The position numbers and the translations under genes are program-made. The notes beneath the pieces were generated by a model. The model made no database searches, had not been told where the DNA came from, and saw only the letters and a list, made by a program, of their open reading frames with translations. Shown piece after piece: positions 5,890 to 31,979 of a stretch of 64,000 nt of DNA; position 1 is the first letter of the stretch; each line of letters begins with the position of its first letter. The stretch is from a virus. Where the stretch lies: the IMG/VR virus record IMGVR_UViG_3300025466_000015; one strand, given 5' to 3'.

Positions 5890-6467
5890 GTGATATGATT
5901 ACATTTGATACAACAGATGCATTAAAGACTATTGGCCCCACACCAATCATCAACATTTATGATTTGGTTCCTGAAGATGATCCTATTTTAAGAGAACCTA
6001 TACCTGAATTCAACTTCAATAATCCACCAATTAATCCAAATAAGTTTGCTTCGGCTCTTGTTGAGACTTGTAAGAAATATAATGGTTATGGACTATCAGC
6101 TAACCAGTGTGGTTTTAAACATCGTGTATTTGTAGTTGGTGCTGGTGATGATTATGTGGCATTCTTTAATCCTAAAATTGTTGAAACCAAAGGTGAAGTC
6201 CATATGATGGAAGGTTGCCTTTCTTTTCCTATGTTAGGACTACACATTACTAGACCGGCCGAATTGGTTATTGAATATCAGGATTTTAATGGTGCGACTA
6301 GGACTGGACATTATGTTGGTATGACTGCTCGTTGTATCCTCCATGAGCTTGACCACATGAACGGAATAGTGTATACTAGCAAAGCGAAACCACTAGCTTT
6401 GCAAAGTGGTATGAAGAAACGTAATAAAGTTATGAAAATGGTGAAAAAAATCAATGGCAAAAAGTAA
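5886..6467 (+). CDS. def: Peptide deformylase
   Basis: GYGLSANQCG, EGCLSFP, HELDHMNG motifs. Confidence 0.95.
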   Translation: MSDMITFDTTDALKTIGPTPIINIYDLVPEDDPILREPIPEFNFNNPPINPNKFASALVETCKKYNGYGLSANQCGFKHRVFVVGAGDDYVAFFNPKIVETKGEVHMMEGCLSFPMLGLHITRPAELVIEYQDFNGATRTGHYVGMTARCILHELDHMNGIVYTSKAKPLALQSGMKKRNKVMKMVKKINGKK

Positions 6468-7779
6468 AACAACAATTAGTACACTCTTTGGCGAAGAAGA
6501 GGTTTATGTCACTACCAAAAAAATTCCTCCTCTAGAAGAACAATGGGAAATTTGGCAAAATATGAATCGACCAAATTCATTCAAGTCTATTGATGAAAAT
6601 GAATTAAAAGAAATATTACTTAAAGATTTAACTTATGCATCTCAGATGGATGTTCGTGAATATACTTTGTATCAAAAATGGAATGAAGTACATGAAAAAT
6701 ATCCAACCATTAAAAGAAACACTTTTGATGGAAGCAGTGAGATTCAGTTAGTTGATTCAAAACATGAGAATGATATTAAAGAAATTAAAGAAAACATTTG
6801 GGTACCAGAAAGTCCAGATGATTATGCCAATCTACAACCTACGATGATTTTATCCAATGGTCCTTTGGCTGACAAATGGAATACTCTTAGAACTTTCTCC
6901 TCAACAATGAAGAACAATTCTAATATTGGTCGTAATCTATATTACACGGTGATGGATAAAGTGACACAAAAGTATCTTGGTGTTATTTGTATATCGTCTG
7001 ACTTCTTGGATCTCACTCCAAGAGACAATCACATTGGTTGGCCTAAGACAGTCAAGACTCAAGGCAACATGATTAACCATACGGCTATTGGTTCTACGAT
7101 TGTTCCACTACAACCACTTGGTTTTAATTATATGGGTGGCAAATTACTTGCCTTATTATGTTTATCTGATACAGTACAGAATGATTGGAAAAGACAATAT
7201 GAAGACACGCTTGTTGGTGTTACTACCACTTCTTTATATGGCAACACTAAAGCCGGTGGCCTTTCTCAGTATGATGGTCTTGATTACTGGAATCCTATGG
7301 GTTTCACATCTGGATCCGTAGCATTTGATCCTTCAAAACAAACTATGAAAATGGTCTTTGATTGGATTAAAGAAAACCACACACGCAAATACTTTGAGTG
7401 GTGGGAAGCCAAAAAGGAGACTGGTCTGCCTTTCAAACGTGACCATAAAAACCGTTCATTACATTTTGCTTATAGTAAATTAAAAATACCTAAAAACTTA
7501 ATTCGTTGTGAACATGCTCGTGGAATTTATTTCTCTCCTTTATATAACAATACTTGTGAATATTTAAGAAAAGAAATAGGAGATGACCAATTGATTAAAT
7601 CCTTTGATACGAGCGAGGAAGCTTTGACAAACATTTGGAAAACCAAGTTTGCCAAACCGAGAATAAGACAATTACAAAAGAAAAACAAAGTATCCACGGA
7701 ATCTTTGTTCTATGATGACTTGATATATTTGTCTTGGGAGGAAACTAAGACAAAATATTTACCACAGGTTGGTAGATAA
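6454..7779 (+). CDS. DUF4338 (DruA-like) family protein, paralog 1
   Basis: GRNLYY..LGVICISS..PRD..IGW..IVPLQPLGFNYMGGKLLALL..TTSLYG..SQYDG. Confidence 0.7.
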   Translation: MAKSKTTISTLFGEEEVYVTTKKIPPLEEQWEIWQNMNRPNSFKSIDENELKEILLKDLTYASQMDVREYTLYQKWNEVHEKYPTIKRNTFDGSSEIQLVDSKHENDIKEIKENIWVPESPDDYANLQPTMILSNGPLADKWNTLRTFSSTMKNNSNIGRNLYYTVMDKVTQKYLGVICISSDFLDLTPRDNHIGWPKTVKTQGNMINHTAIGSTIVPLQPLGFNYMGGKLLALLCLSDTVQNDWKRQYEDTLVGVTTTSLYGNTKAGGLSQYDGLDYWNPMGFTSGSVAFDPSKQTMKMVFDWIKENHTRKYFEWWEAKKETGLPFKRDHKNRSLHFAYSKLKIPKNLIRCEHARGIYFSPLYNNTCEYLRKEIGDDQLIKSFDTSEEALTNIWKTKFAKPRIRQLQKKNKVSTESLFYDDLIYLSWEETKTKYLPQVGR

Positions 7780-19586: not shown

Positions 19587-19664
19587 GCCCCTGTGGACAA
19601 ATTGGCAAAGTCGTTTCTCTCAAAAGGAAAAATTCTCTCGGTTCGACTCCGAGCGGGGGTACCA
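19587..19664 (+). tRNA. tRNA-Leu(CAA), short variable region
   Basis: TTTCT-ct CAA aa-GGAAA; CCA. Confidence 0.82.
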
Positions 19665-19736
19665 GTAATAATGTAATAAAAGTAATAAGAGTAATATCCT
19701 GTGTAGGATGTTAAGTGCTGATGTATAATAACATCT

Positions 19737-20018
19737 ATGAAAAACACTATATTACTCCTATCATTTTTAGCAACTGCCTGTGGCGGAGGTGAACCAAATA
19801 CTTCCGTAACCAAACCATGTGTCAGTAACATTGTAGCAACTATGTCTGAGATGACCTCGCCATTTTTTGAAGGTATGGGTACGCCTGATAGCATTACCAC
19901 ATTTCCTATAATAAATGGTCAACATAGTATTGAATATGATTTTAAATCACTACATAAGAGACTAACATTTATTTGGACAGACCAAGGTGTTTGCCAAGAA
20001 ATAGAAACAACAATTTGA
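19737..20018 (+). CDS. Small lipoprotein
   Basis: MKNTILLLSFLATA-C lipobox. Confidence 0.65.
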   Translation: MKNTILLLSFLATACGGGEPNTSVTKPCVSNIVATMSEMTSPFFEGMGTPDSITTFPIINGQHSIEYDFKSLHKRLTFIWTDQGVCQEIETTI

Positions 20019-20093
20019 CTGCCGTTAGTATAATGGATAATACAGCTGCCTTCTAAGCAGTCAATAGAGGTTCGATTCCTCTACGGCGGACCA
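20019..20093 (+). tRNA. tRNA-Arg(TCT)
   Basis: ct TCT aa loop; GGTTCGATTCC; CCA. Confidence 0.9.
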
Positions 20094-20121
20094 ATAAATA
20101 GTAATAGTTAAGGAGAAACTA

Positions 20122-20454
20122 ATGTCATATATTATTCAACTCGTAAAAAATAAACCGGAAGACAAACAATTTTTTAGATATGGTTATAAAGATTCCGATG
20201 CGAATACTATTGTGAAAAATATTAATAGTTGGATCAATAGTCAACCTGGTCTTATTAGTCGTAACACGCCGCCTCCTGCAGATTTTGATATTGCAAATTC
20301 TAATATAATAATTGAAAGTTTTGAATTTAAATCAAATGTTTTTGCTGAAATATTTCAAGCACAAACCGCTTCAAATCCGGATTGGCAATTACGATTAAGT
20401 TACGAAGCAAACAATTCAATTACATCAACTTGGCAAGTGGTTGAAAATACATAA
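20122..20454 (+). CDS. Hypothetical protein
   Basis: SD AAGGAG; ATAAATA late-like element upstream. Confidence 0.6.
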   Translation: MSYIIQLVKNKPEDKQFFRYGYKDSDANTIVKNINSWINSQPGLISRNTPPPADFDIANSNIIIESFEFKSNVFAEIFQAQTASNPDWQLRLSYEANNSITSTWQVVENT

Positions 20455-20456
20455 TT

Positions 20457-20531
20457 GCTCCGATAGCTTAATGGTAAAGCAACCGACTCATAATCGGTTG
20501 AGTCTGTGTTCAATTCACAGTCGGAGCACCA
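20457..20531 (+). tRNA. tRNA with CAT anticodon, probably Ile2 (lysidine type)
   Basis: ACCGA-ct CAT aa-TCGGT resembles the bacterial ileX arm; CCA. Confidence 0.75.
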
Positions 20532-20549
20532 AGTTTACCACAAGGACGC

Positions 20550-20578
20550 TTGACAAGAGCGCCTATATAAGATACAAT
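20550..20578 (+). promoter_or_regulatory. sigma70 promoter TTGACA-17-TACAAT
   Basis: Directly upstream of the Gly tRNA group. Confidence 0.75.
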
Positions 20579-20590
20579 CTAATTTTAGTT

Positions 20591-20665
20591 GCGGGTATGG
20601 TGCTAGTGGTAACACAAGACCTTGCCAAGGTTTAGTTGAGAGTTCGATTCTCTCTACCCGCTCCA
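20591..20665 (+). tRNA. tRNA-Gly(GCC)
   Basis: tt GCC aa loop; GCG start; U73-CCA. Confidence 0.9.
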
Positions 20666-20672
20666 GTTTATT

Positions 20673-20746
20673 GCGGATTTAGTTTAATGGTAGAACGGGA
20701 GATTTCCAATCTTTCGGCAACAGTTCGATTCTGTTAATCCGCTCCA
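20673..20746 (+). tRNA. tRNA-Gly(TCC)
   Basis: tt TCC aa loop; U73-CCA. Confidence 0.9.
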
Positions 20747-20751
20747 GTTAT

Positions 20752-20816
20752 GCGGGGGTTTCAAACAACATTGGGGTCCACCTGATGTCCTAGTGAGAAT
20801 CTAGGCACCCGCTCCA
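20752..20816 (+). ncRNA. 65-nt D-armless Gly-type mini-tRNA / tRNA mimic
   Basis: GCGGG/CCCGC-U-CCA acceptor; 8-bp arm with GTCCA loop; T-arm CCTAG-tgagaat-CTAGG; no D arm. Confidence 0.65.
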
Positions 20817-20835
20817 ATTTATTATGGAGTTCATA

Positions 20836-21027
20836 ATGTCTGATGGTGGCAAAGGAAGTAATCCAAGACCTTTTAGTGTAGACCAAGACACTTATGGTAA
20901 AAACTTTGACGCCATCTTCCGTAAACCTACACCAAAAGAATTAGATGATGAGGCAGCTGAAAAAGAAGCTTTTGATAAATTATCGCAGGGTGGTGAAACA
21001 GTATCACGAAGGACTCATAATCCTTAG
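20836..21027 (+). CDS. Small hypothetical protein (GGKGSxPRP motif)
   Basis: SD GGAG; MSDGGKGSNPRPFSV..NFDAIFRK; 3' end runs into tRNA-fMet. Confidence 0.6.
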   Translation: MSDGGKGSNPRPFSVDQDTYGKNFDAIFRKPTPKELDDEAAEKEAFDKLSQGGETVSRRTHNP

Positions 21028-21057
21028 TTCTTGGTGCGACTCCAGGCTCTGCAACCA
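20984..21057 (+). tRNA. Initiator tRNA-fMet(CAT)
   Basis: C1.A72 mismatch; ct CAT aa loop; CCA; lacks the full three G-C anticodon-stem pairs. Confidence 0.8.
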
Positions 21058-21100
21058 GTTCATATAAATATCCAGTTATCGTTTAACTTGGATATAGAAA

Positions 21101-22537
21101 ATGCCTGTAAAAAGTTTTGTAGAATTTGAAAAAGAAAAATACCAAAAGCACATTGACTTTTATGGTAAAATTCTAATTATCGGTTATGGCTCTGTTGGAC
21201 AAGCCATTTTACCAGTTATTTTAAGACACATTGCTGTTGATCCAAAAAACATCACGGTACTAGAACGTGATAATCATAGACACATTTTTATTCACCGCCA
21301 CGGTGGTTCTGGCTGTCACTATGTCAGAAAAGAGATTCTTCCAAGTAATTACAAAAAAGTATTATCAACCTATGTTGGTGAAGGTGATTTAATTATCAAT
21401 TGCTCACTTAATATTGATGCACAAGCATTACTAGAGTGGTGTATGGAAAATGATGTGATGGAAATTGATACATCATTAGAAAGATGGGAACATCATCCAG
21501 ACGAAACAATTCCAAAGTTGTCTGAACGAACATTGTACCATACACATAAAGTTGTTCGTGAAGCTATGATGCAACATGTTGATGGTCCTACATGCTGTGT
21601 GACTCATGGTGCAAATCCAGGTTATGTTACTCATTTGACCAAAAGAGCACTTCTTAATCTAGCCAAGAAACGTGGCAAAAAAGTTGAGATGCCAACAGAC
21701 CGTGAAGAATGGGCTCAGTTGATGAAATCACTAGATGTTAAAGTGATTCATATTGCTGAAAGAGACCAACAAGTTATTAATCAACCAAAAACAAAAGGTG
21801 AATTTACCAACACATGGTCTTGCGAAGGTTTTTGGGCTGAAGGTAGAGCGCCTGCCGAGATGGGCTGGGGCACACATGAAGACAGACATCCAGAAGGCGG
21901 TAAGTCACAAGGTAATGCAGCTTTCTTAATGCAACCTGGCGCTTCTGTATTGATGAAGTCTTGGGTACCAGATGGTGGACAATACAATGGTTACTGTATT
22001 CAACATTCAGAGTCAGTAACAATATCAGAATACTTCACAACAAAACGTGGTGACTTTAGACCATCCGTTTATTACGTTTATCAACCATGTGATTCGGCTA
22101 TTGCTTCGCTACATGAGATGCGTGGTAACGAATTAGATATTCAAAAAGAACAACGTATTCTCAAAGATGAAATCGTTGACGGCATGGATGAATTGGGTGT
22201 ATTATTGATTGGTGACGGCTTCTGCTTCTGGCACGGTTCACAATTAGATATTCACGGGGCTAGAGAATTAGTGGAAGGTGAAAATGCAACATCAATGCAA
22301 GTTGCAGGTTCTATGTTGGGTGCCATCGTTTGGATGATTAAAAATCCGAGAAATGGTTACACAGAACCAGAAGAATTGCCGTTTGAAGAAATCTTGGCCA
22401 TCGGTGACCAATATTGGGAACCATTGGTATCTGTAATGTCTAACTGGACACCAAGCAAGGACACTAACAGTCTATTCTATAAAGAATTTGATGAAAGTAA
22501 TCCTTGTAAATACGAAAACTTTAGAGTCTGGACTTAA
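21101..22537 (+). CDS. hss: Homospermidine synthase
   Basis: IIGYGSVG, HGANPG, IHIAERD, FTNTWSCEGF, EMGWGTHE, GMDELGVL, NATSMQV; late promoter TATAAATA at 21063. Confidence 0.93.
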   Translation: MPVKSFVEFEKEKYQKHIDFYGKILIIGYGSVGQAILPVILRHIAVDPKNITVLERDNHRHIFIHRHGGSGCHYVRKEILPSNYKKVLSTYVGEGDLIINCSLNIDAQALLEWCMENDVMEIDTSLERWEHHPDETIPKLSERTLYHTHKVVREAMMQHVDGPTCCVTHGANPGYVTHLTKRALLNLAKKRGKKVEMPTDREEWAQLMKSLDVKVIHIAERDQQVINQPKTKGEFTNTWSCEGFWAEGRAPAEMGWGTHEDRHPEGGKSQGNAAFLMQPGASVLMKSWVPDGGQYNGYCIQHSESVTISEYFTTKRGDFRPSVYYVYQPCDSAIASLHEMRGNELDIQKEQRILKDEIVDGMDELGVLLIGDGFCFWHGSQLDIHGARELVEGENATSMQVAGSMLGAIVWMIKNPRNGYTEPEELPFEEILAIGDQYWEPLVSVMSNWTPSKDTNSLFYKEFDESNPCKYENFRVWT

Positions 22538-22827
22538 TTAGGCACAGCCACAACTCTCTTGACTCCAGTTTGTGGGTCAATCATTTCTTGCCAATGATAA
22601 CCAAACGGTGGTGCTTGCACTACTGGTTGTTGAACAATAACTGAAGGTTGTTCCACATAAACTGGTGGACGAGCTAATTCATAACCAACAACACCACCAA
22701 TCAAAGCTGGTGCAACCCAACCCATTCCGTTTCCACGATAACAACAATATCCACCATGATGATGCCATTGTGCATCAGCAGTTCCTAAAATTGTTAAAAG
22801 TGATAAAGCTAGTAGTGATTTTTTCAT
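22534..22827 (-). CDS. Small secreted/membrane Gly-Pro-rich protein
   Basis: Signal peptide; GWVAPALIGGVVGYELARPPVYV. Confidence 0.65.
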   Translation of the reverse strand: MKKSLLALSLLTILGTADAQWHHHGGYCCYRGNGMGWVAPALIGGVVGYELARPPVYVEQPSVIVQQPVVQAPPFGYHWQEMIDPQTGVKRVVAVPN

Positions 22828-23585
22828 TATAGTCTCCTTCTGTGTATATCGTAAAGATAAGTAACCTCATAAATTCTTGTATGAGTGTTTCTGCTTCCTA
22901 ATACGATAATGATAGAATTATTTAGTTTAGTCACAATACATCCACCAGAAGCAGAGATCCATCCTGTCTTACTTATAGTAAAATCTTTTTTACCAACGAG
23001 TGGATTTGTATTATGATATACAAGTTTTCTTTTCTTTACGATAACTTCAACGGATGTTTTTTTATCTGCTTCTACTATAAATGAATAATTAGCTGCAGCC
23101 TTAACTAGATTAACCAATTGTTTGGCTGAACTGGTATTTCTCTTATCAAGACCTGTTGGTTCATATACGATAGAATCAACCATATTCAAACTTTGTAATT
23201 TTAAATTCATCACATATACACAGACACCAAAACCACCAGGGTATTGTTCGCATAGAGTTTGTGCAGCTCTGTTATTACTATTGACTAAAGCCAATTCTAA
23301 TAAAATTCTTCTTGGCAATTGTGAAGGTAAGGCATCTCGAATTTTAGTACTGAGAGGTACTAATTCATCCATATCTTGTTTGGCATCCAACACAACCATT
23401 GCCACAATCAATTTGCTGATACTGGCTATTGGTTGTATTCTATCTTCATTAGACGCATCAAGAACGGTATTGGTATCTTCGTTTGTGATTAACCAAGACT
23501 TTGCGGTAATTGGTTGCGCTTGGACATTTCCGAGATTAAAAAGTAGGGAGAATAAACATAATATAGAAAAAACAATGCGTAGCAA
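22827..23585 (-). CDS. D-Ala-D-Ala peptidase, family S11 (PbpG/PBP7-like)
   Basis: Signal peptide; PIASISKL (SxxK), SNN (SxN), SKTG; SD GAGGAG before TTG. Confidence 0.88.
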   Translation of the reverse strand: MLRIVFSILCLFSLLFNLGNVQAQPITAKSWLITNEDTNTVLDASNEDRIQPIASISKLIVAMVVLDAKQDMDELVPLSTKIRDALPSQLPRRILLELALVNSNNRAAQTLCEQYPGGFGVCVYVMNLKLQSLNMVDSIVYEPTGLDKRNTSSAKQLVNLVKAAANYSFIVEADKKTSVEVIVKKRKLVYHNTNPLVGKKDFTISKTGWISASGGCIVTKLNNSIIIVLGSRNTHTRIYEVTYLYDIHRRRL

Positions 23586-23755
23586 TTTAAATACTCCTCA
23601 ATGATAGTAGTCATATTTATTTGCTCAATTTAAGATACAATAATACTATAGCCATAGCAAACACATATAAGCAAAGGAAAAAACCAAGTATAATTTTTAC
23701 TGATAAAGTCAGAAAAAAATCAGAAAAAGACATAGTTTCTTGTTCATCAATTTCA

Positions 23756-24577
23756 TCATCTTGATTGTTGTTGTAATTCGGCATCTTCTTTTTGTAATTG
23801 TTCTTCGTATTGTTGCAATTCTAATAAATGCAATCTTCTACGTTCTGCTTGATGTTGTTTAATAACTTCTGGTTCTAATTCTGGCCATCTCTGTTTTCTA
23901 TCGTATGAGATATAAGCCATTAATAAAGTCATAGTTAATCCTAAAACAATAACAAAGCCACCATAACTTAATTCTGTCATGTACAATTTAAATTTTTCTC
24001 TTTTTCTGGCTGCAGCTCTTTCTTCATCACGGAGTTTTTTCTTGAGTAAGAATTTTTGTTCTACACCCATACTTTTCATCATCTCACTAACATCAGTCCA
24101 TAAAGCACCTAATTCTGGTGGTGCGTTGTAAATCATCATCTCACGGAGTTCAACTTGCATCTGTTCAAGTTGTTTTTTCATTAGAACAAGTTGTAGAGCA
24201 CGTTTACCTAGACTTGAATCTCCTGTGTATAATTCTTCACGGTTCTTTCTTTCTTCTTCTTCAATCACGGCCATACATTTTGTCATGGCATCAAAGAAGT
24301 CGCCAAGGTAATTACCAAGTTCAGTATAAATGCCAGTAGTTTCACCACCACGTTTATTCAATTCAATGACACGATTCTTCTCTTGTATGAATTGATTTTT
24401 CACCTCAACGGAAACTGGAGTTCCGGGTGGATGTGCTTTGTGGAACTGGTCGTCAAGATCCTTGAGGACGGATTTAACCTCCCCAGCAGCACCCTTGATG
24501 TCTTTATATAATTGGCAACCTTTTTTAACGGCCGCAACTGCTCCGTTTGCTAGAGCAAACAGCGTAATCGGATCCAT
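23756..24577 (-). CDS. Coiled-coil membrane-anchored hypothetical protein
   Basis: 273-aa ORF; MDPITLFALANGAVAAVKKG; one TM segment near the C-terminus. Confidence 0.7.
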   Translation of the reverse strand: MDPITLFALANGAVAAVKKGCQLYKDIKGAAGEVKSVLKDLDDQFHKAHPPGTPVSVEVKNQFIQEKNRVIELNKRGGETTGIYTELGNYLGDFFDAMTKCMAVIEEEERKNREELYTGDSSLGKRALQLVLMKKQLEQMQVELREMMIYNAPPELGALWTDVSEMMKSMGVEQKFLLKKKLRDEERAAARKREKFKLYMTELSYGGFVIVLGLTMTLLMAYISYDRKQRWPELEPEVIKQHQAERRRLHLLELQQYEEQLQKEDAELQQQSR

Positions 24578-30619: not shown

Positions 30620-30870
30620 TTAAAAAGTTTTTTTCACATTGGATATGGCCTTGGACTTGGTTTCCAGGATTTTCTTTAATTGATGAAGGCAGCCGCATGG
30701 CTCATGAATATACAGATGAAAAATCCAGAGAAGAAATTTCTCGCATTTATAAAGAATACTATGAAGAAGCAACATCTCCATTAGTTAATCCATTAAAATT
30801 TGATCCTTTAAATCCTCCAAAAGGCTGGGCATTTGATCCTTACTATTGCATATGGCATCCATACAAATGA
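30616..30870 (+). CDS. Hypothetical protein
   Basis: Coupled ORF; PLKFDPLNPPKGWAFDPYY motif. Confidence 0.55.
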   Translation: MIKKFFSHWIWPWTWFPGFSLIDEGSRMAHEYTDEKSREEISRIYKEYYEEATSPLVNPLKFDPLNPPKGWAFDPYYCIWHPYK

Positions 30871-31979
30871 ATTTAACAACTGAAGAAGCACTATATTGTT
30901 CTAAGGCATTTCAAGATTACTTTGCTAATTTTGGTGATATTGAACAATACATGAGAGATGAGAAATTAAAATCTCTTGATTCTATTGGATCATCACTATT
31001 TCCACCTGAAGACGATTTGTTTTCAGACTTCTCTATGCACCCAAAAGACATGGATATTGAAGTAATTGAAATGAATGGTGCTATGTGGGAAACATTATTG
31101 AGTATCACTTCATCACACGTTAATAAAGCACCTGTTGGTCGCAATATACAATTGGCTGTCAGAGAAAAGAACACAGGAAAGATTCTAGGATTCATTAGAC
31201 TTGGTTCGCCAGTCATCTATATGAAACCCCGAAATGAAATGCTTGGACAAGTTTGGATACAGAACAAAGAGTTTCCTAAACGATTCAATGATTCTGCCAT
31301 CATGGGTTTTGTGATTGTACCAGCACAACCCTTTGGATTTAATTATCTTGGCGGTAAATTACTAGCTGCTATCTGTACTTCACACACAGTTAGAGAAATT
31401 GTAAATAAGAAATACAATGCTAATATTTGTTTATTTGAAACTACCAGTCTTTATGGTACGGCCAAAACTGTATCACAATATGACGGCATGAAACCTTATA
31501 TTCGATTCAAAGGATTAACCGAATCTGATATGGTACCCATGATGCACGGTGAAAGATATCAATCACTCAAAGAATATGTTGAGAGCAAAGTTGGTGGTGA
31601 TATATTAGGTGAAGATGAATCAACAACTAGCCGTAAATTGAGAACATTTACTAAGATTATTGCTATGACAAAAGCTGCACTTAAAGGCACACCAGAAGGA
31701 CAACTATTTGAAAAGACTATTGAAGATGCCAAGAATCTAACTGAAAAGAAAAGATATTATACTTCAGATTATGGTTTCAGTAATATGGTTGATTATGTCA
31801 ATGGAAAAACAGACACGTTAATTCCTGGTGAAAACTATGAAAAACATGAATTAAAAAATCTTGTTGAATGGTGGCGAAACAAAGCTATAAATAGATATGA
31901 AACTCTTAAATCTGAGGGTAGATTGCGTACCGAACTAGAAGTTTGGACATCAGGCAAAGACATTCAAATTATTAGGTAA
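30867..31979 (+). CDS. DUF4338 (DruA-like) family protein, paralog 2
   Basis: GRNIQL..GFIRLGSP..PRN..IVPAQPFGFNYLGGKLLAAI..ETTSLYG..SQYDG. Confidence 0.72.
   Translation: MNLTTEEALYCSKAFQDYFANFGDIEQYMRDEKLKSLDSIGSSLFPPEDDLFSDFSMHPKDMDIEVIEMNGAMWETLLSITSSHVNKAPVGRNIQLAVREKNTGKILGFIRLGSPVIYMKPRNEMLGQVWIQNKEFPKRFNDSAIMGFVIVPAQPFGFNYLGGKLLAAICTSHTVREIVNKKYNANICLFETTSLYGTAKTVSQYDGMKPYIRFKGLTESDMVPMMHGERYQSLKEYVESKVGGDILGEDESTTSRKLRTFTKIIAMTKAALKGTPEGQLFEKTIEDAKNLTEKKRYYTSDYGFSNMVDYVNGKTDTLIPGENYEKHELKNLVEWWRNKAINRYETLKSEGRLRTELEVWTSGKDIQIIR

Follow-up and report, generated by a model that had tools for sequence, protein, structure and literature searches.

A miniature tRNA-Gly gene family in uncultured T4-like phages, possibly a private glycine carrier for a DruA-type GNAT

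A stretch of viral DNA of 64,000 nucleotides (IMG/VR record IMGVR_UViG_3300025466_000015), referred to here as the window, carries a 65-nt mini tRNA-Gly gene (20752-20816, plus strand; type A, 65-nt subclass), and the question raised by this locus is what such an RNA does for the phage. An earlier note, made from the letters of the window, had placed the element third after two tRNA-Gly genes under one promoter. This arrangement is borne out by the tRNA calls and by the promoter-like site upstream of the trio, which is the best one within 19600-21600 (Table 1). The note's description of the element itself, with its glycine identity pairs, U73, CCA, arms and T loop, also agrees with the sequence. 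The acceptor stem is built from G1-C72, C2-G71, G3-C70, G4-C69, G5-C68 and G7-C66, with a single mismatch at G6.A67; U73 corresponds to 20813 and CCA to 20814-20816. The anticodon-like stem (ACATTGGG/CCTGATGT) comprises 8 bp (20768-20775 and 20781-20788) and encloses the loop GTCCA (20776-20780). Two points had to be amended: the linker in place of the D arm counts 9 nt (TTTCAAACA) rather than 10 nt, and the term "D-armless" is overstated since the family carries a miniature 3-bp D hairpin. In the window this hairpin would be GTT/TCA/AAC and would take over G7; within the subclass, GTT/AAC with a 3-nt loop is the sole D pairing possible, and it competes with G7-C66. The element at 20752-20816 is called neither by ARAGORN nor by the Rfam tRNA model, even at E<=10, and its single-sequence fold is no better than that of a shuffled sequence (z = -1.41). 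The covariance model R1 scores it at 45 bits (E 5e-9).

Table 1. Features of the window that bear on the mini tRNA-Gly gene
Feature	Coordinates	Strand	Basis
DruA/DUF4338-family GNAT-fold protein, 441 aa, candidate user of the mini RNA	6454-7779	+	PF14236, E 4.5e-20
Sigma-70-like promoter, TTGACA-17-TACAAT	20550-20578	+	consensus match alone, 11/12 positions
Full-size tRNA-Gly(GCC)	20591-20665	+	ARAGORN; Rfam 55 bits
Full-size tRNA-Gly(UCC), 5 nt 5' of the mini gene	20673-20746	+	ARAGORN; Rfam 67.5 bits
Acceptor 5' strand, GCGGGGG	20752-20758	+	sequence; covariation alignment
Linker TTTCAAACA, 9 nt, vestigial mini D arm	20759-20767	+	family-wide hairpin
Anticodon-like arm: 7-bp stem plus G32-C38 closing pair, loop G33-U34-C35-C36-A37	20768-20788	+	sequence, fold, covariation
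T arm: stem CCTAG/CTAGG, loop TGAGAAT	20789-20805	+	sequence, covariation
Acceptor 3' strand CACCCGC, discriminator U73, genome-encoded CCA	20806-20816	+	sequence; phage tRNA signature comparison
Second DruA/DUF4338-family protein, 377 aa	30846-31979	+	PF14236, E 1.9e-9

Pattern scans of IMG/VR returned at least 119 type-A and 88 type-B stretches, which collapse to 115 distinct mini tRNA-Gly sequences (70 of type A and 45 of type B). The homolog search that the earlier note had suggested as a check, run in IMG/VR, yields 115 unique sequences with covarying helices; the element is conserved and, since homologs exist, is not a product of chance despite its uninformative single fold. The members form a large, unannotated family carried by uncultured T4-like phages. 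The structure descriptor matches solely at family elements, with no match in shuffled loci. Within the collections searched, the mini gene is restricted to viral contigs. The type-A pattern combined with 5' GCGG gave four unfoldable chance matches and no member in 185,579 prokaryote species genomes, and blastn searches of cultured phages, with positions 20400-21100 of the window and with a tandem of type B and type A, found no mini. Scanning of the cultured T4-like Methylophilales phage Melnitz, which has a true Mom homolog, did not reveal a mini either. Searches of Rfam found no family for the mini tRNA-Gly, and because neither Rfam nor the usual tRNA-finding programs detect these genes, phage annotations lack them altogether; in the literature on D-arm-less or mini tRNAs of phages, no account of it was found. 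One putative member (G004, 52% GC) was rejected as a chance pattern match. Another genome, G005, holds a family member. Exactly one mini is found in each of four complete mini-bearing genomes, all of which also encode full-size tRNA-Gly; some other loci have a mini without any full-size tRNA-Gly in the stretch examined.

Compensatory changes are found in all helices of the family. The alignment used was fitted to the covariance model, since MAFFT had misplaced the structure in an initial set of eight members; for type A it comprises 78 distinct rows, three of them full-size tRNA-Gly. In this alignment 96.9% of the cells are paired, both sides change in 14 of the 19 pairs, and the covariation score is 0.734, whereas shuffles score 0.20 and slid controls no higher than 0.12. 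Type B is 95.9% paired, with a covariation score of 0.338 vs 0.151. In type A, the acceptor pairs 5-68 and 6-67 covary, the anticodon-like stem has both-side changes in six of seven pairs, and the T stem is fully paired (100%), with covariation in four of five pairs and G53-C61 in 78/78 rows; the type-B T stem has 4 bp. The D region folds into a 3-bp hairpin with a loop of 3-5 nt, whereas the canonical arm has a 4-bp stem and a G18-G19 loop. A D hairpin of at least 3 bp can be formed by 67 of the 70 unique type-A sequences but by only 27% of shuffled linkers. Ten stem types occur among the type-A mini D stems, and the type-B D stem is 100% paired, including a swap between A-U and G-C. Canonical tRNA traits that are kept include the 7-bp acceptor stem, the 5-bp T stem, G53-C61, U54, A58 and CCA. 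The type-A T loop reads U54-G55-N56-R57-A58-A59-U60, so that R57 is kept, U55 is replaced by G and position 56 is no longer bound to C; this consensus arises in part because the search pattern required T-loop letters. According to the earlier note, the intact stems speak against simple decay. The compensatory changes in homologs reinforce this argument; the acceptor mismatch G6.A67 is not mentioned in the note. That the gene encodes a functional structured RNA is, on this evidence, almost certain.

The identity set of bacterial GlyRS consists of U73, G1-C72, C2-G71 (plus G3-C70), C35 and C36 (PMC9976931). In the mini family, G1-C72, C2-G71 and G3-C70 are invariant in 78/78 type-A rows and in 44 type-B rows, and U73 and the encoded CCA are fixed. 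Among 878 unique tRNAs of these phages, the signature GCG...CGC plus U73 is Gly-specific: 84 of the 87 unique full-size tRNA-Gly sequences have it vs 0/791 other tRNAs. The loops found in the family are GUCCA, GCCA, UACCC, UUCCC, CACCC, UCCCC and UGCCC; C35-C36 is therefore nearly always fixed and the wobble base free. Type A has G33-U34-C35-C36-A37, a pattern whose statistics are biased because the search required GTCCA, and types B and C have U33-N34-C35-C36-C37, where N is A, U, C or G. In one type-B member (L191), A replaces C at alignment column 31, which is position 37.

What a ribosome would need is kept much less well. The anticodon stem measures 7-9 bp across the family vs the canonical 5 bp, and the decoder rules of U33 and a purine at position 37 are broken, either by G33 (type A) or by C37 (types B and C). 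In the subclass of the window, a Watson-Crick 32-38 pair can shut the loop down to 5 nt; two members (L003 and L004) have a 6-nt anticodon-like loop. The elbow contacts between G18-G19 and U55-C56 are absent in the mini family. Affinity for EF-Tu was predicted by the T-stem rule, which considers the pairs 49-65, 50-64 and 51-63 (PMC3239215). It predicts a ddG of +0.95 +/- 0.36 kcal/mol for the minis vs -0.41 for tRNA-Gly(GCC) and +0.08 for tRNA-Gly(UCC) of the same phages; in the window the predicted values are +0.8, -0.4 and 0.0, respectively. Nearly all minis have either A-U or U-A at 51-63, and their T stem is predicted to belong to the EF-Tu-weak class, as in the staphylococcal non-proteogenic tRNA-Gly. 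Taken as a whole, these features suggest that the mini RNA is probably glycylated and non-decoding.

A glycine carrier calls for a user, and the earlier note had proposed a transferase, pointing to a pair of DUF4338 genes. Both proteins match PF14236 (72.4 bits for 6454-7779 and 37.5 bits for 30846-31979, with a gathering cut-off of 27). In the window these genes lie approximately 13 kb and 10 kb from the mini; taking the window together with its close lineage, 6.6-13 kb separate the GNAT from the mini, which sits within the tRNA array. Elsewhere the two are neighbours. Of 207 mini-bearing loci, 42 have an ortholog of 6454-7779 in the same orientation as the mini and ending 28-136 nt 5' of it, which is the outcome of the co-occurrence check set out in the earlier note; related lineages that lack a nearby tRNA have the mini 6-136 nt behind the GNAT ortholog. 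No full-size tRNA is present in any of these 42 GNAT-adjacent stretches. Outside the tRNA array, minis lie beside the GNAT ortholog in 42 of about 49 loci. Most of the sampled gaps between GNAT and mini contain a TTGACA-17-TATAAT promoter, and several minis are followed by a terminator hairpin. Sampling from the GNAT side, an adjacent mini was found at 25 of 41 orthologs (57-67% identity); 14 of the 41 have no mini in the stretch examined and two more have one 548-766 nt away. More distant DruA homologs on other contigs (32-42% identity) have no mini nearby. Each of the four complete mini-bearing genomes carries two DruA genes and one mini-less relative (G006) carries none, and both DruA genes are among 19 ORFs common to the four mini genomes and absent from two mini-less relatives (G006 and G007, where a direct check found no mini); this phyletic contrast is weak because there are only two negative genomes and these are more distant relatives. 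The second DruA/DUF4338 protein (30846-31979) co-occurs with the first, but nothing was found that ties it directly to the RNA. No FemAB (PF02388) match was found in five virus records with a completeness of 93% or more, of which four truly bear a mini, or among the Pfam families listed for the window ORFs (at most 25 per batch). The proposal of a glycyl donor for a transferase is favoured by the identity set, the predicted weak T stem and the GNAT adjacency in other lineages, whereas the distance between the genes in the window and the GNAT's lack of sequence kinship to Mom or Fem speak against it.

DUF4338 has been described as a GNAT (PMC10853773). The top structural match of the GNAT fold encoded at 6454-7779 is Mom of phage Mu (8bv8; Z 10.1, rmsd 3.8 Å, 168 residues aligned), tied with acetyl-CoA-using GNATs, which score Z 8-9.7, generic acetyltransferases and FemA reaching Z 9.2-9.7; the Foldseek E-values are weak (approximately 0.02-0.08). 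On the level of sequence, there is no match to the Mom family PF25680 in four complete relatives, a profile search of PDB sequences gave no match, and hhalign assigns the pair a probability of 0.5-1.7%. Searches at three depths did not connect DruA with Mom by sequence. A conserved QPxG...GGK loop lies between beta4 and alpha3, at what we take to be the CoA pyrophosphate site of ordinary GNATs. Since this loop is kept, the protein may use acetyl-CoA. Fold comparison of the N-terminal 130 residues was uninformative (best Z 2.8) and so gives no hint of a DNA-binding domain.

The mini gene is thus conserved, structured and genomically linked to a GNAT. Since features read by GlyRS are kept and features needed by the ribosome are missing, the RNA is probably a glycine carrier for a phage transferase. 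We infer a path of processing, charging, EF-Tu avoidance and glycyl transfer to an acceptor that may be phage DNA. In this scheme, the promoter at 20550-20578 would drive the mini together with both full-size tRNA-Gly genes, and the mini would be excised by host tRNA-processing enzymes, for which the 7+5 bp acceptor/T helix, the T-loop motif and CCA are kept. Host GlyRS would then glycylate the RNA because the full bacterial identity set (G1-C72, C2-G71, G3-C70, U73, C35 and C36) is retained. The charged RNA would be excluded from translation by the missing D/T elbow, the anticodon stem of 7-8 bp and G33 in place of U33, as well as by the closable 32-38 pair and the EF-Tu-weak T stem. Finally, the glycyl ester would be used by a phage enzyme, the best candidate being the DruA/DUF4338-type GNAT at 6454-7779, in parallel to Mu Mom and to staphylococcal FmhB/FemAB with their own non-proteogenic tRNA-Gly. 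On the explanation as a whole, a miniaturised non-ribosomal tRNA-Gly serving as private glycine carrier for the GNAT, our judgement is evenly poised. The specific assignment of the mini RNA as glycine donor for the DruA-type GNAT falls just short of that. Slightly more tentative still is the broader notion of a private aminoacyl-carrier system operated by T4-like phages in uncultured and probably aquatic communities, in which a virus-encoded mini tRNA-Gly, insulated from the ribosome and charged by host GlyRS, would supply the GNAT, and the GNAT would glycylate a macromolecule, most attractively phage DNA in the manner of Mom.

Several readings compete with that of a glycine carrier for the GNAT. 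The mini could act as a decoy, sponge or regulator that resembles tRNA-Gly in its acceptor end and its C35-C36 face and occupies a tRNA-Gly-targeting factor, such as a TacT/AtaT2-type GNAT toxin, another tRNA-directed defence enzyme or GlyRS, or it could itself be substrate or antidote of the GNAT. The conserved parts are indeed those read by tRNA-Gly-specific proteins, TacT specificity depends on U73 and G71 (PMC9976931), and a sponge acting by stoichiometry would be well served by the strong promoter-like site before several of the stand-alone minis; moreover, GNAT toxins act on aminoacyl-tRNA and the neighbouring gene is a GNAT. An acceptor-end sponge, however, needs neither C35-C36 on a length-conserved arm nor an EF-Tu-weak 51-63 pair, the partner GNAT is a protein of 420-440 aa from the DruA family in a conserved phage position with no sign of a toxin-antitoxin pair, and no tRNA-Gly-specific defence target is known for the hosts of these phages. 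We regard such a role as unlikely, although worth keeping in view. Decidedly unlikely is a variant in which the RNA is charged and non-ribosomal but serves another enzyme, the GNAT adjacency being synteny without function. This would fit the window lineage, where the mini sits in the tRNA array away from the GNAT, and those GNAT orthologs that lack a nearby mini; it also leaves room for the many ORFs without assigned function, which are the majority in these genomes of 160-236 kb. Yet FemAB is absent from the five records that are at least 93% complete, no further aminoacyl-tRNA transferase family appears among the Pfam families listed for the window ORFs, and outside the tRNA array it is this one gene that the mini adjoins in 42 of about 49 loci.

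Two further readings are less likely again. A compact, translationally active tRNA-Gly reading GGN on host ribosomes, in the way that D-arm-less mitochondrial tRNAs decode, and perhaps shaped against tRNA-targeting defences, would explain why the cloverleaf topology is kept and why some loci have a mini and no full-size tRNA-Gly in the stretch examined. The anticodon stem (7 bp), A26 and the mini D stem (3 bp) would together approximate the length of the canonical anticodon/D helix, and the type-A loop UGUCCAA differs from UUUCCAA of the phages' own tRNA-Gly(UCC) solely at position 33. Such a decoder is nevertheless improbable in view of G33 (type A) or C37 (types B and C), the closed 5-nt loop of the window, the 6-nt loop of L003 and L004, a wobble base that takes all four values, A34 included, and the lack of G18-G19/U55-C56 elbow contacts; in addition, the T stem is predicted to bind EF-Tu 1.0-1.4 kcal/mol more weakly than those of the same phages' decoders, and full-size tRNA-Gly is present in 4/4 complete genomes. 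A decaying tRNA-Gly duplicate or a bare RNase P/E processing signal is extremely improbable. For the window alone this could be argued: the mini adjoins its likely parent genes in the tRNA array, its single-sequence fold does not exceed shuffles, and a ribosome-binding site with ATG follows within 20 nt. The rival is, however, already contradicted by 115 unique sequences in which every helix is compensated and the identity nucleotides are invariant, by stand-alone promoter-mini-terminator units in other lineages and by the single copy per complete genome (4/4); a processing signal has no need for C35-C36 or U73.

A close parallel to a glycine carrier for the phage GNAT is offered by staphylococci. 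The NP1-NP3 tRNA-Gly species of S. aureus and S. epidermidis are glycine donors for FmhB, FemA and FemB, and the non-proteogenic tRNA-Gly of S. aureus carries A51-U63 (PMC7826273). Both systems feature an extra tRNA-Gly with retained GlyRS identity, an EF-Tu-weak A-U at 51-63 and altered D and T loops, and in both glycine would be diverted away from translation, to a GNAT-fold transferase. The staphylococcal RNAs, however, are cellular tRNAs of full size whose anticodon arm is normal, and the Fem enzymes act on peptidoglycan precursors; the phage minis are virus-encoded RNAs of 64-70 nt with a 3-bp D hairpin and an anticodon stem of 7-9 bp, and a Fem homolog is absent from the five virus records at least 93% complete. 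In phage Mu, the GNAT Mom takes glycine from host Gly-tRNA-Gly and attaches it to adenine N6 in dsDNA (PMC13219725). As with Mom, a phage GNAT-fold enzyme would be paired with tRNA-Gly; recognition by Mom probably depends chiefly on the acceptor end, and this part is retained in the mini RNA. In contrast to the window phage, Mu has no tRNA of its own and relies on host tRNA-Gly, and the window GNAT belongs to PF14236 (DruA), which lacks detectable sequence similarity to Mom (PF25680). The TacT/AtaT2 toxins, which acetylate Gly-tRNA-Gly, are also GNAT-fold proteins; the nucleotides by which they read tRNA-Gly, U73 and G71, never vary in the mini RNA. These toxins block translation and come with protein antitoxins, whereas the window GNAT is much larger and of a different family, and nothing suggests a toxin-antitoxin pair.

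In architecture, the minis recall the D-arm-less mitochondrial tRNAs, exemplified by metazoan mt-tRNA-Ser(AGY) and nematode mt-tRNAs (PMC7609411). In both, the cloverleaf is shortened, the D arm is reduced or lost, the connector is short and the anticodon stem is extended. The mt-tRNAs, however, do decode, having ordinary 7-nt anticodon loops and mitochondrial factors matched to them, while the phage minis keep a D hairpin, violate the U33/R37 rules and occur in bacterial viruses, where neither a 2020 review (PMC7609411) nor our literature searches report a D-arm-reduced tRNA. If the proposed role holds, D-arm-reduced tRNAs would extend from mitochondria to bacterial viruses, and a virus would have kept a tRNA-dependent side reaction from conflicting with translation by building a minimal carrier of its own. 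Such a natural "orthogonal" tRNA of 64-70 nt would be the first virus-evolved tRNA-like carrier purely for non-ribosomal chemistry, would define the minimal RNA acceptable to bacterial GlyRS and RNase P, and would possibly point to a new, abundant modification of DNA or another macromolecule in environmental phages. The DUF4338/DruA GNAT family is widespread and includes the Druantia defence protein; if it holds, the proposed glycyl transfer would give the DruA fold, shared with that defence system, its first biochemical activity. Phage T4 itself encodes small stable RNAs in its tRNA cluster, species 1 and 2 (rnaC and rnaD), for which, to our knowledge, no glycine identity has been described; they measure approximately 120-140 nt and are co-transcribed with the tRNAs. 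As for the surroundings of the mini gene in the window, a ribosome-binding site and an ATG lie at most 20 nt downstream of it.

The sequence derives from a large T4-like phage encoding RegA, gp44/45/62-type clamp and loader proteins, UvsX, a gp41-type helicase, T4 RNase H, and a B-family polymerase; a search of the cultured phages in INPHARED returned no close relative. Its 26 tRNA genes span 14.2–21.1 kb. Among them, a miniaturised tRNA-Gly gene (the mini, 20752-20816) follows tRNA-Gly(GCC), tRNA-Gly(UCC), and a 5-nt spacer, and a TTGACA-17-TACAAT site lies ahead of the trio, which bears out the earlier description of a third gene behind a single promoter-like site. The anatomy described in the earlier note likewise matches the sequence in its helices, loops, U73, and CCA, but the linker measures 9 nt, not 10. 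ARAGORN and Rfam left the element uncalled, even at E ≤ 10, and its fold energy taken alone is unremarkable (z = -1.41). The case for the mini therefore rests on its relatives.

Coordinates of the mini, its parts, and other features of the window
Feature	Position	Strand	Details
Acceptor helix of the mini	within 20752-20816		7 positions, GCGGGGG/CACCCGC; G1-C72, C2-G71, G3-C70; one G6.A67 mismatch
Linker	within 20752-20816		9 nt, between acceptor 5' strand and anticodon-like arm
Anticodon-like arm	within 20752-20816		8 bp, GTCCA loop
T arm	within 20752-20816		stem CCTAG/CTAGG, all paired; loop TGAGAAT
3' end	within 20752-20816		U73 and genome-encoded CCA
DruA-type GNAT (DUF4338/PF14236)	6454-7779	plus	441 aa
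Second DruA protein	30846-31979	plus	377 aa
67-codon ORF	20824-21027		GGAG ahead
tRNA gene	20984-21057		C1.A72 mismatch
Saccharopine-dehydrogenase-fold protein	21101-22537		478 aa
ORF	22534-22827	minus	97 aa
Peptidase_S11 D-Ala-D-Ala carboxypeptidase	22827-23585	minus	
Protein without Pfam match	23756-24577	minus	273 aa

Relatives reached via the neighbouring saccharopine-dehydrogenase-like gene carry homologous elements beside their tRNA-Gly genes, with compensatory changes: the T stem CCTAG/CTAGG of the window, for example, reads TCTAG/CTAGA in locus L003. A structure descriptor found family elements in six further contigs and none in shuffled sequence. All of these were recovered by a covariance model seeded with two members, which also picked up tandem copies with loop variants and revealed a second subfamily of 67 nt (type B; the window copy belongs to a 65-nt subclass of type A). 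Pattern scans of IMG/VR matched at least 119 stretches for type A, with 70 distinct sequences among the matches listed, and 88 stretches for type B, reducing to 45 distinct sequences; nearly all matches listed are true family members. Four prokaryotic matches of a tightened type-A pattern (185,579 species, one genome each) were rejected, being close to chance expectation and none of them folding, and cultured phages gave no match. The homolog search proposed in the earlier note has thus uncovered a conserved family that, within the collections searched, occurs on viral contigs alone and on which literature searches found no publication. It is wider than the patterns used could catch. A candidate variant of ~63 nt (L415:11793-11855; covariance model score 19 bits) lies 548 nt behind a DruA-type gene, and a 'type C' copy (L146:3907-3974) has the loop CTCCCCG and an aberrant T loop, TTTAACA.

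The family plan comprises an acceptor (7), a mini D hairpin (3 bp, loop of 3–5 nt), one A, an anticodon-like stem of 7–9 bp, 0–1 variable nucleotides, a T arm (4–5 bp, 7-nt loop), and U73-CCA. The element had been regarded as D-armless, a view that does not hold for the family, in which the linker is a miniature D arm. Hairpins of at least 3 bp, of ten distinct stem types, occur in 67 of the 70 type-A sequences among the matches listed, versus 27% of shuffled linkers, and the type-B D stem is paired in every sequence, alternating between A-U and G-C. In the window's 65-nt subclass the D arm is vestigial, the sole possible hairpin being GTT/NNN/AAC, which borrows G7. The type-A T loop keeps U54, R57, and A58 and has G55, position 56 being free (TG..AAT is partly set by the search pattern); positions 55 and 56 normally touch the D loop.

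That the mini RNA is functional seems, from comparative sequence evidence, almost certain. In the model-fitted type-A alignment (78 distinct rows, three being full-size tRNA-Gly), 96.9% of cells are paired, both partners have changed in 14 of 19 pairs, and a covariation score of 0.734 compares with 0.20 in shuffles and no more than 0.12 in slid registers; the ungapped type-B alignment (44 sequences) has 95.9% of cells paired and scores 0.338 versus 0.151. Beside such figures a decaying pseudogene, for which the unremarkable fold energy might speak, looks very improbable. The pairs G1-C72, C2-G71, G3-C70, and G53-C61 are invariant in both alignments, and GCG...CGC with U73 marks 84 of 87 distinct full-size tRNA-Gly and none of 791 other tRNAs of the same phages. 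The type-A loop is G33-U34-C35-C36-A37 (GTCCA was demanded by the search pattern; L003 and L004 have GGCCAC), and that of types B and C is U33-N34-C35-C36-C37, N being A, U, C, or G. The fixed acceptor pairs, U73, and C35-C36 therefore preserve the bacterial glycine identity set (U73, G1-C72, C2-G71, C35, C36; PMC9976931), with C35-C36 kept nearly always. The wobble base drifts, and decoder rules are each broken in one subfamily, U33 in type A and purine 37 in types B and C; a role as a compact decoder is improbable. By the additive rule of Schrader et al. (PMC3239215), the T-stem ΔΔG predicted for minis is +0.95 ± 0.36 kcal/mol versus -0.41 for tRNA-Gly(GCC) and +0.08 for tRNA-Gly(UCC), the window values being +0.8 versus -0.4 and 0.0. 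The minis are thus predicted to form a weak EF-Tu T-stem class because their 51-63 pair is A-U or U-A in nearly all; A51-U63 also occurs in the S. aureus non-proteogenic tRNA-Gly (PMC7826273). For full-size tRNAs of these phages the rule predicts tight T stems in Asp, Glu, His, Ala, and Gly but weak ones in Trp, Val, Tyr, Asn, and Gln. Across all loci this prediction follows the known bacterial EF-Tu compensation pattern, which argues that they are decoders tuned to bacterial EF-Tu.

In the best-supported mechanism, to which we give roughly an even chance, the mini RNA would be charged with glycine by GlyRS, be kept off EF-Tu and the ribosome, and pass its glycine on, most likely to the DruA-type GNAT. 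It would work like staphylococcal NP-tRNA-Gly with Fem enzymes, or Mom with Gly-tRNA-Gly, but belong to neither family. Each of four complete relatives (160–236 kb) has one mini together with full-size tRNA-Gly genes and tmRNA; two more distant, nearly tRNA-gene-free relatives lack it, and both DruA/DUF4338 proteins are among the 19 ORFs common to the four and missing from the two. The co-occurrence with DUF4338 raised earlier is partly supported, although not as adjacency in the window's own lineage. In 42 of 207 listed mini-bearing loci, an ortholog of the 441-aa GNAT (57–75% identity) shares the strand of the mini and ends 28–136 nt 5' of it, with no full-size tRNA in these stretches; the minis are of types A, B, and C+A, most gaps sampled hold a consensus-like promoter, and several minis have a terminator hairpin behind them. 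An independent GNAT-side sample has an adjacent mini in 25 of 41 orthologs at 57–67% identity. Orthologs of at least 68% identity, the window's lineage, never do: three loci with enough 3' sequence have the mini within the tRNA array, ~6.6–7.2 kb downstream of the GNAT, and in the window it is ~13 kb downstream. Moreover, some orthologs of the 'adjacent' lineage lack a neighbouring mini, and none was seen in the neighbourhood of distant DruA homologs in other contigs. Rival readings are a decoy or regulator, which we consider unlikely, and a carrier serving another enzyme, a somewhat more doubtful idea; no Fem homolog was found in five virus records at least 93% complete, four of them mini-bearing.

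DUF4338 is a GNAT domain (PMC10853773), and the AlphaFold model of the window's GNAT (pLDDT 75.5) has this fold. Its top structural neighbour is phage Mu Mom (Z 10.1, 168 residues aligned), with generic acetyltransferases and FemA tied at Z 9.2–9.7. Mom moves glycine from Gly-tRNA-Gly to N6-adenine in dsDNA and accepts all three E. coli isoacceptors, probably reading the acceptor end (Silva et al. 2026, PMC13219725). Membership of the Mom family was rejected for the window GNAT (no PF25680 match, an empty PDB profile search, hhalign probabilities of 0.5–1.7%), and a fold search with its N-terminal domain gave no clue to the target. The near-invariant DruA motif V-P-x-Q-P-x-G-x-N-Y-x-G-G-K-L (residues 217-232) lies at the beta4-alpha3 junction, which binds acyl-CoA pyrophosphate in ordinary GNATs; in the window's protein its ligand may be either CoA or the 3' end of the tRNA. 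A true Mom homolog, annotated as an acetyltransferase, is encoded by the cultured actinophage Antuna (Microbacterium phage, ON260825.1; L348:295-1028); 32 nt separate it from a gene for full-size tRNA-Gly(CCC), whose annotation is on the opposite strand. Antuna offers a tractable system and an independent instance of a Mom-type GNAT accompanied by a tRNA-Gly of its own.

In three of the four complete relatives (G001, G002, G003), tmRNA genes encode tags of the form ANDE/ANDS...ALAA; ARAGORN reports another tmRNA-like gene in G001 (IMGVR_UViG_3300032562_000004; 143567 and 172714), but the tag of this second gene is implausibly long and the call may be false. In the window, the 67-codon ORF is conserved in locus L001 and runs into the next tRNA gene, so that either the two overlap at the 3' end of the ORF or the ORF is spurious. 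The C1.A72 mismatch of that tRNA is a hallmark of bacterial initiator tRNA. A minus-strand island (22534-24577) interrupts an otherwise plus-strand region; the carboxypeptidase it encodes acts on the cell wall and is not an enzyme that T4-like phages usually carry. The 478-aa protein recurs at 33–96% identity across 62 viral contigs, and phage polyamine metabolism is suggested because its size and domains would fit a synthase of the homospermidine or carboxy(nor)spermidine type.
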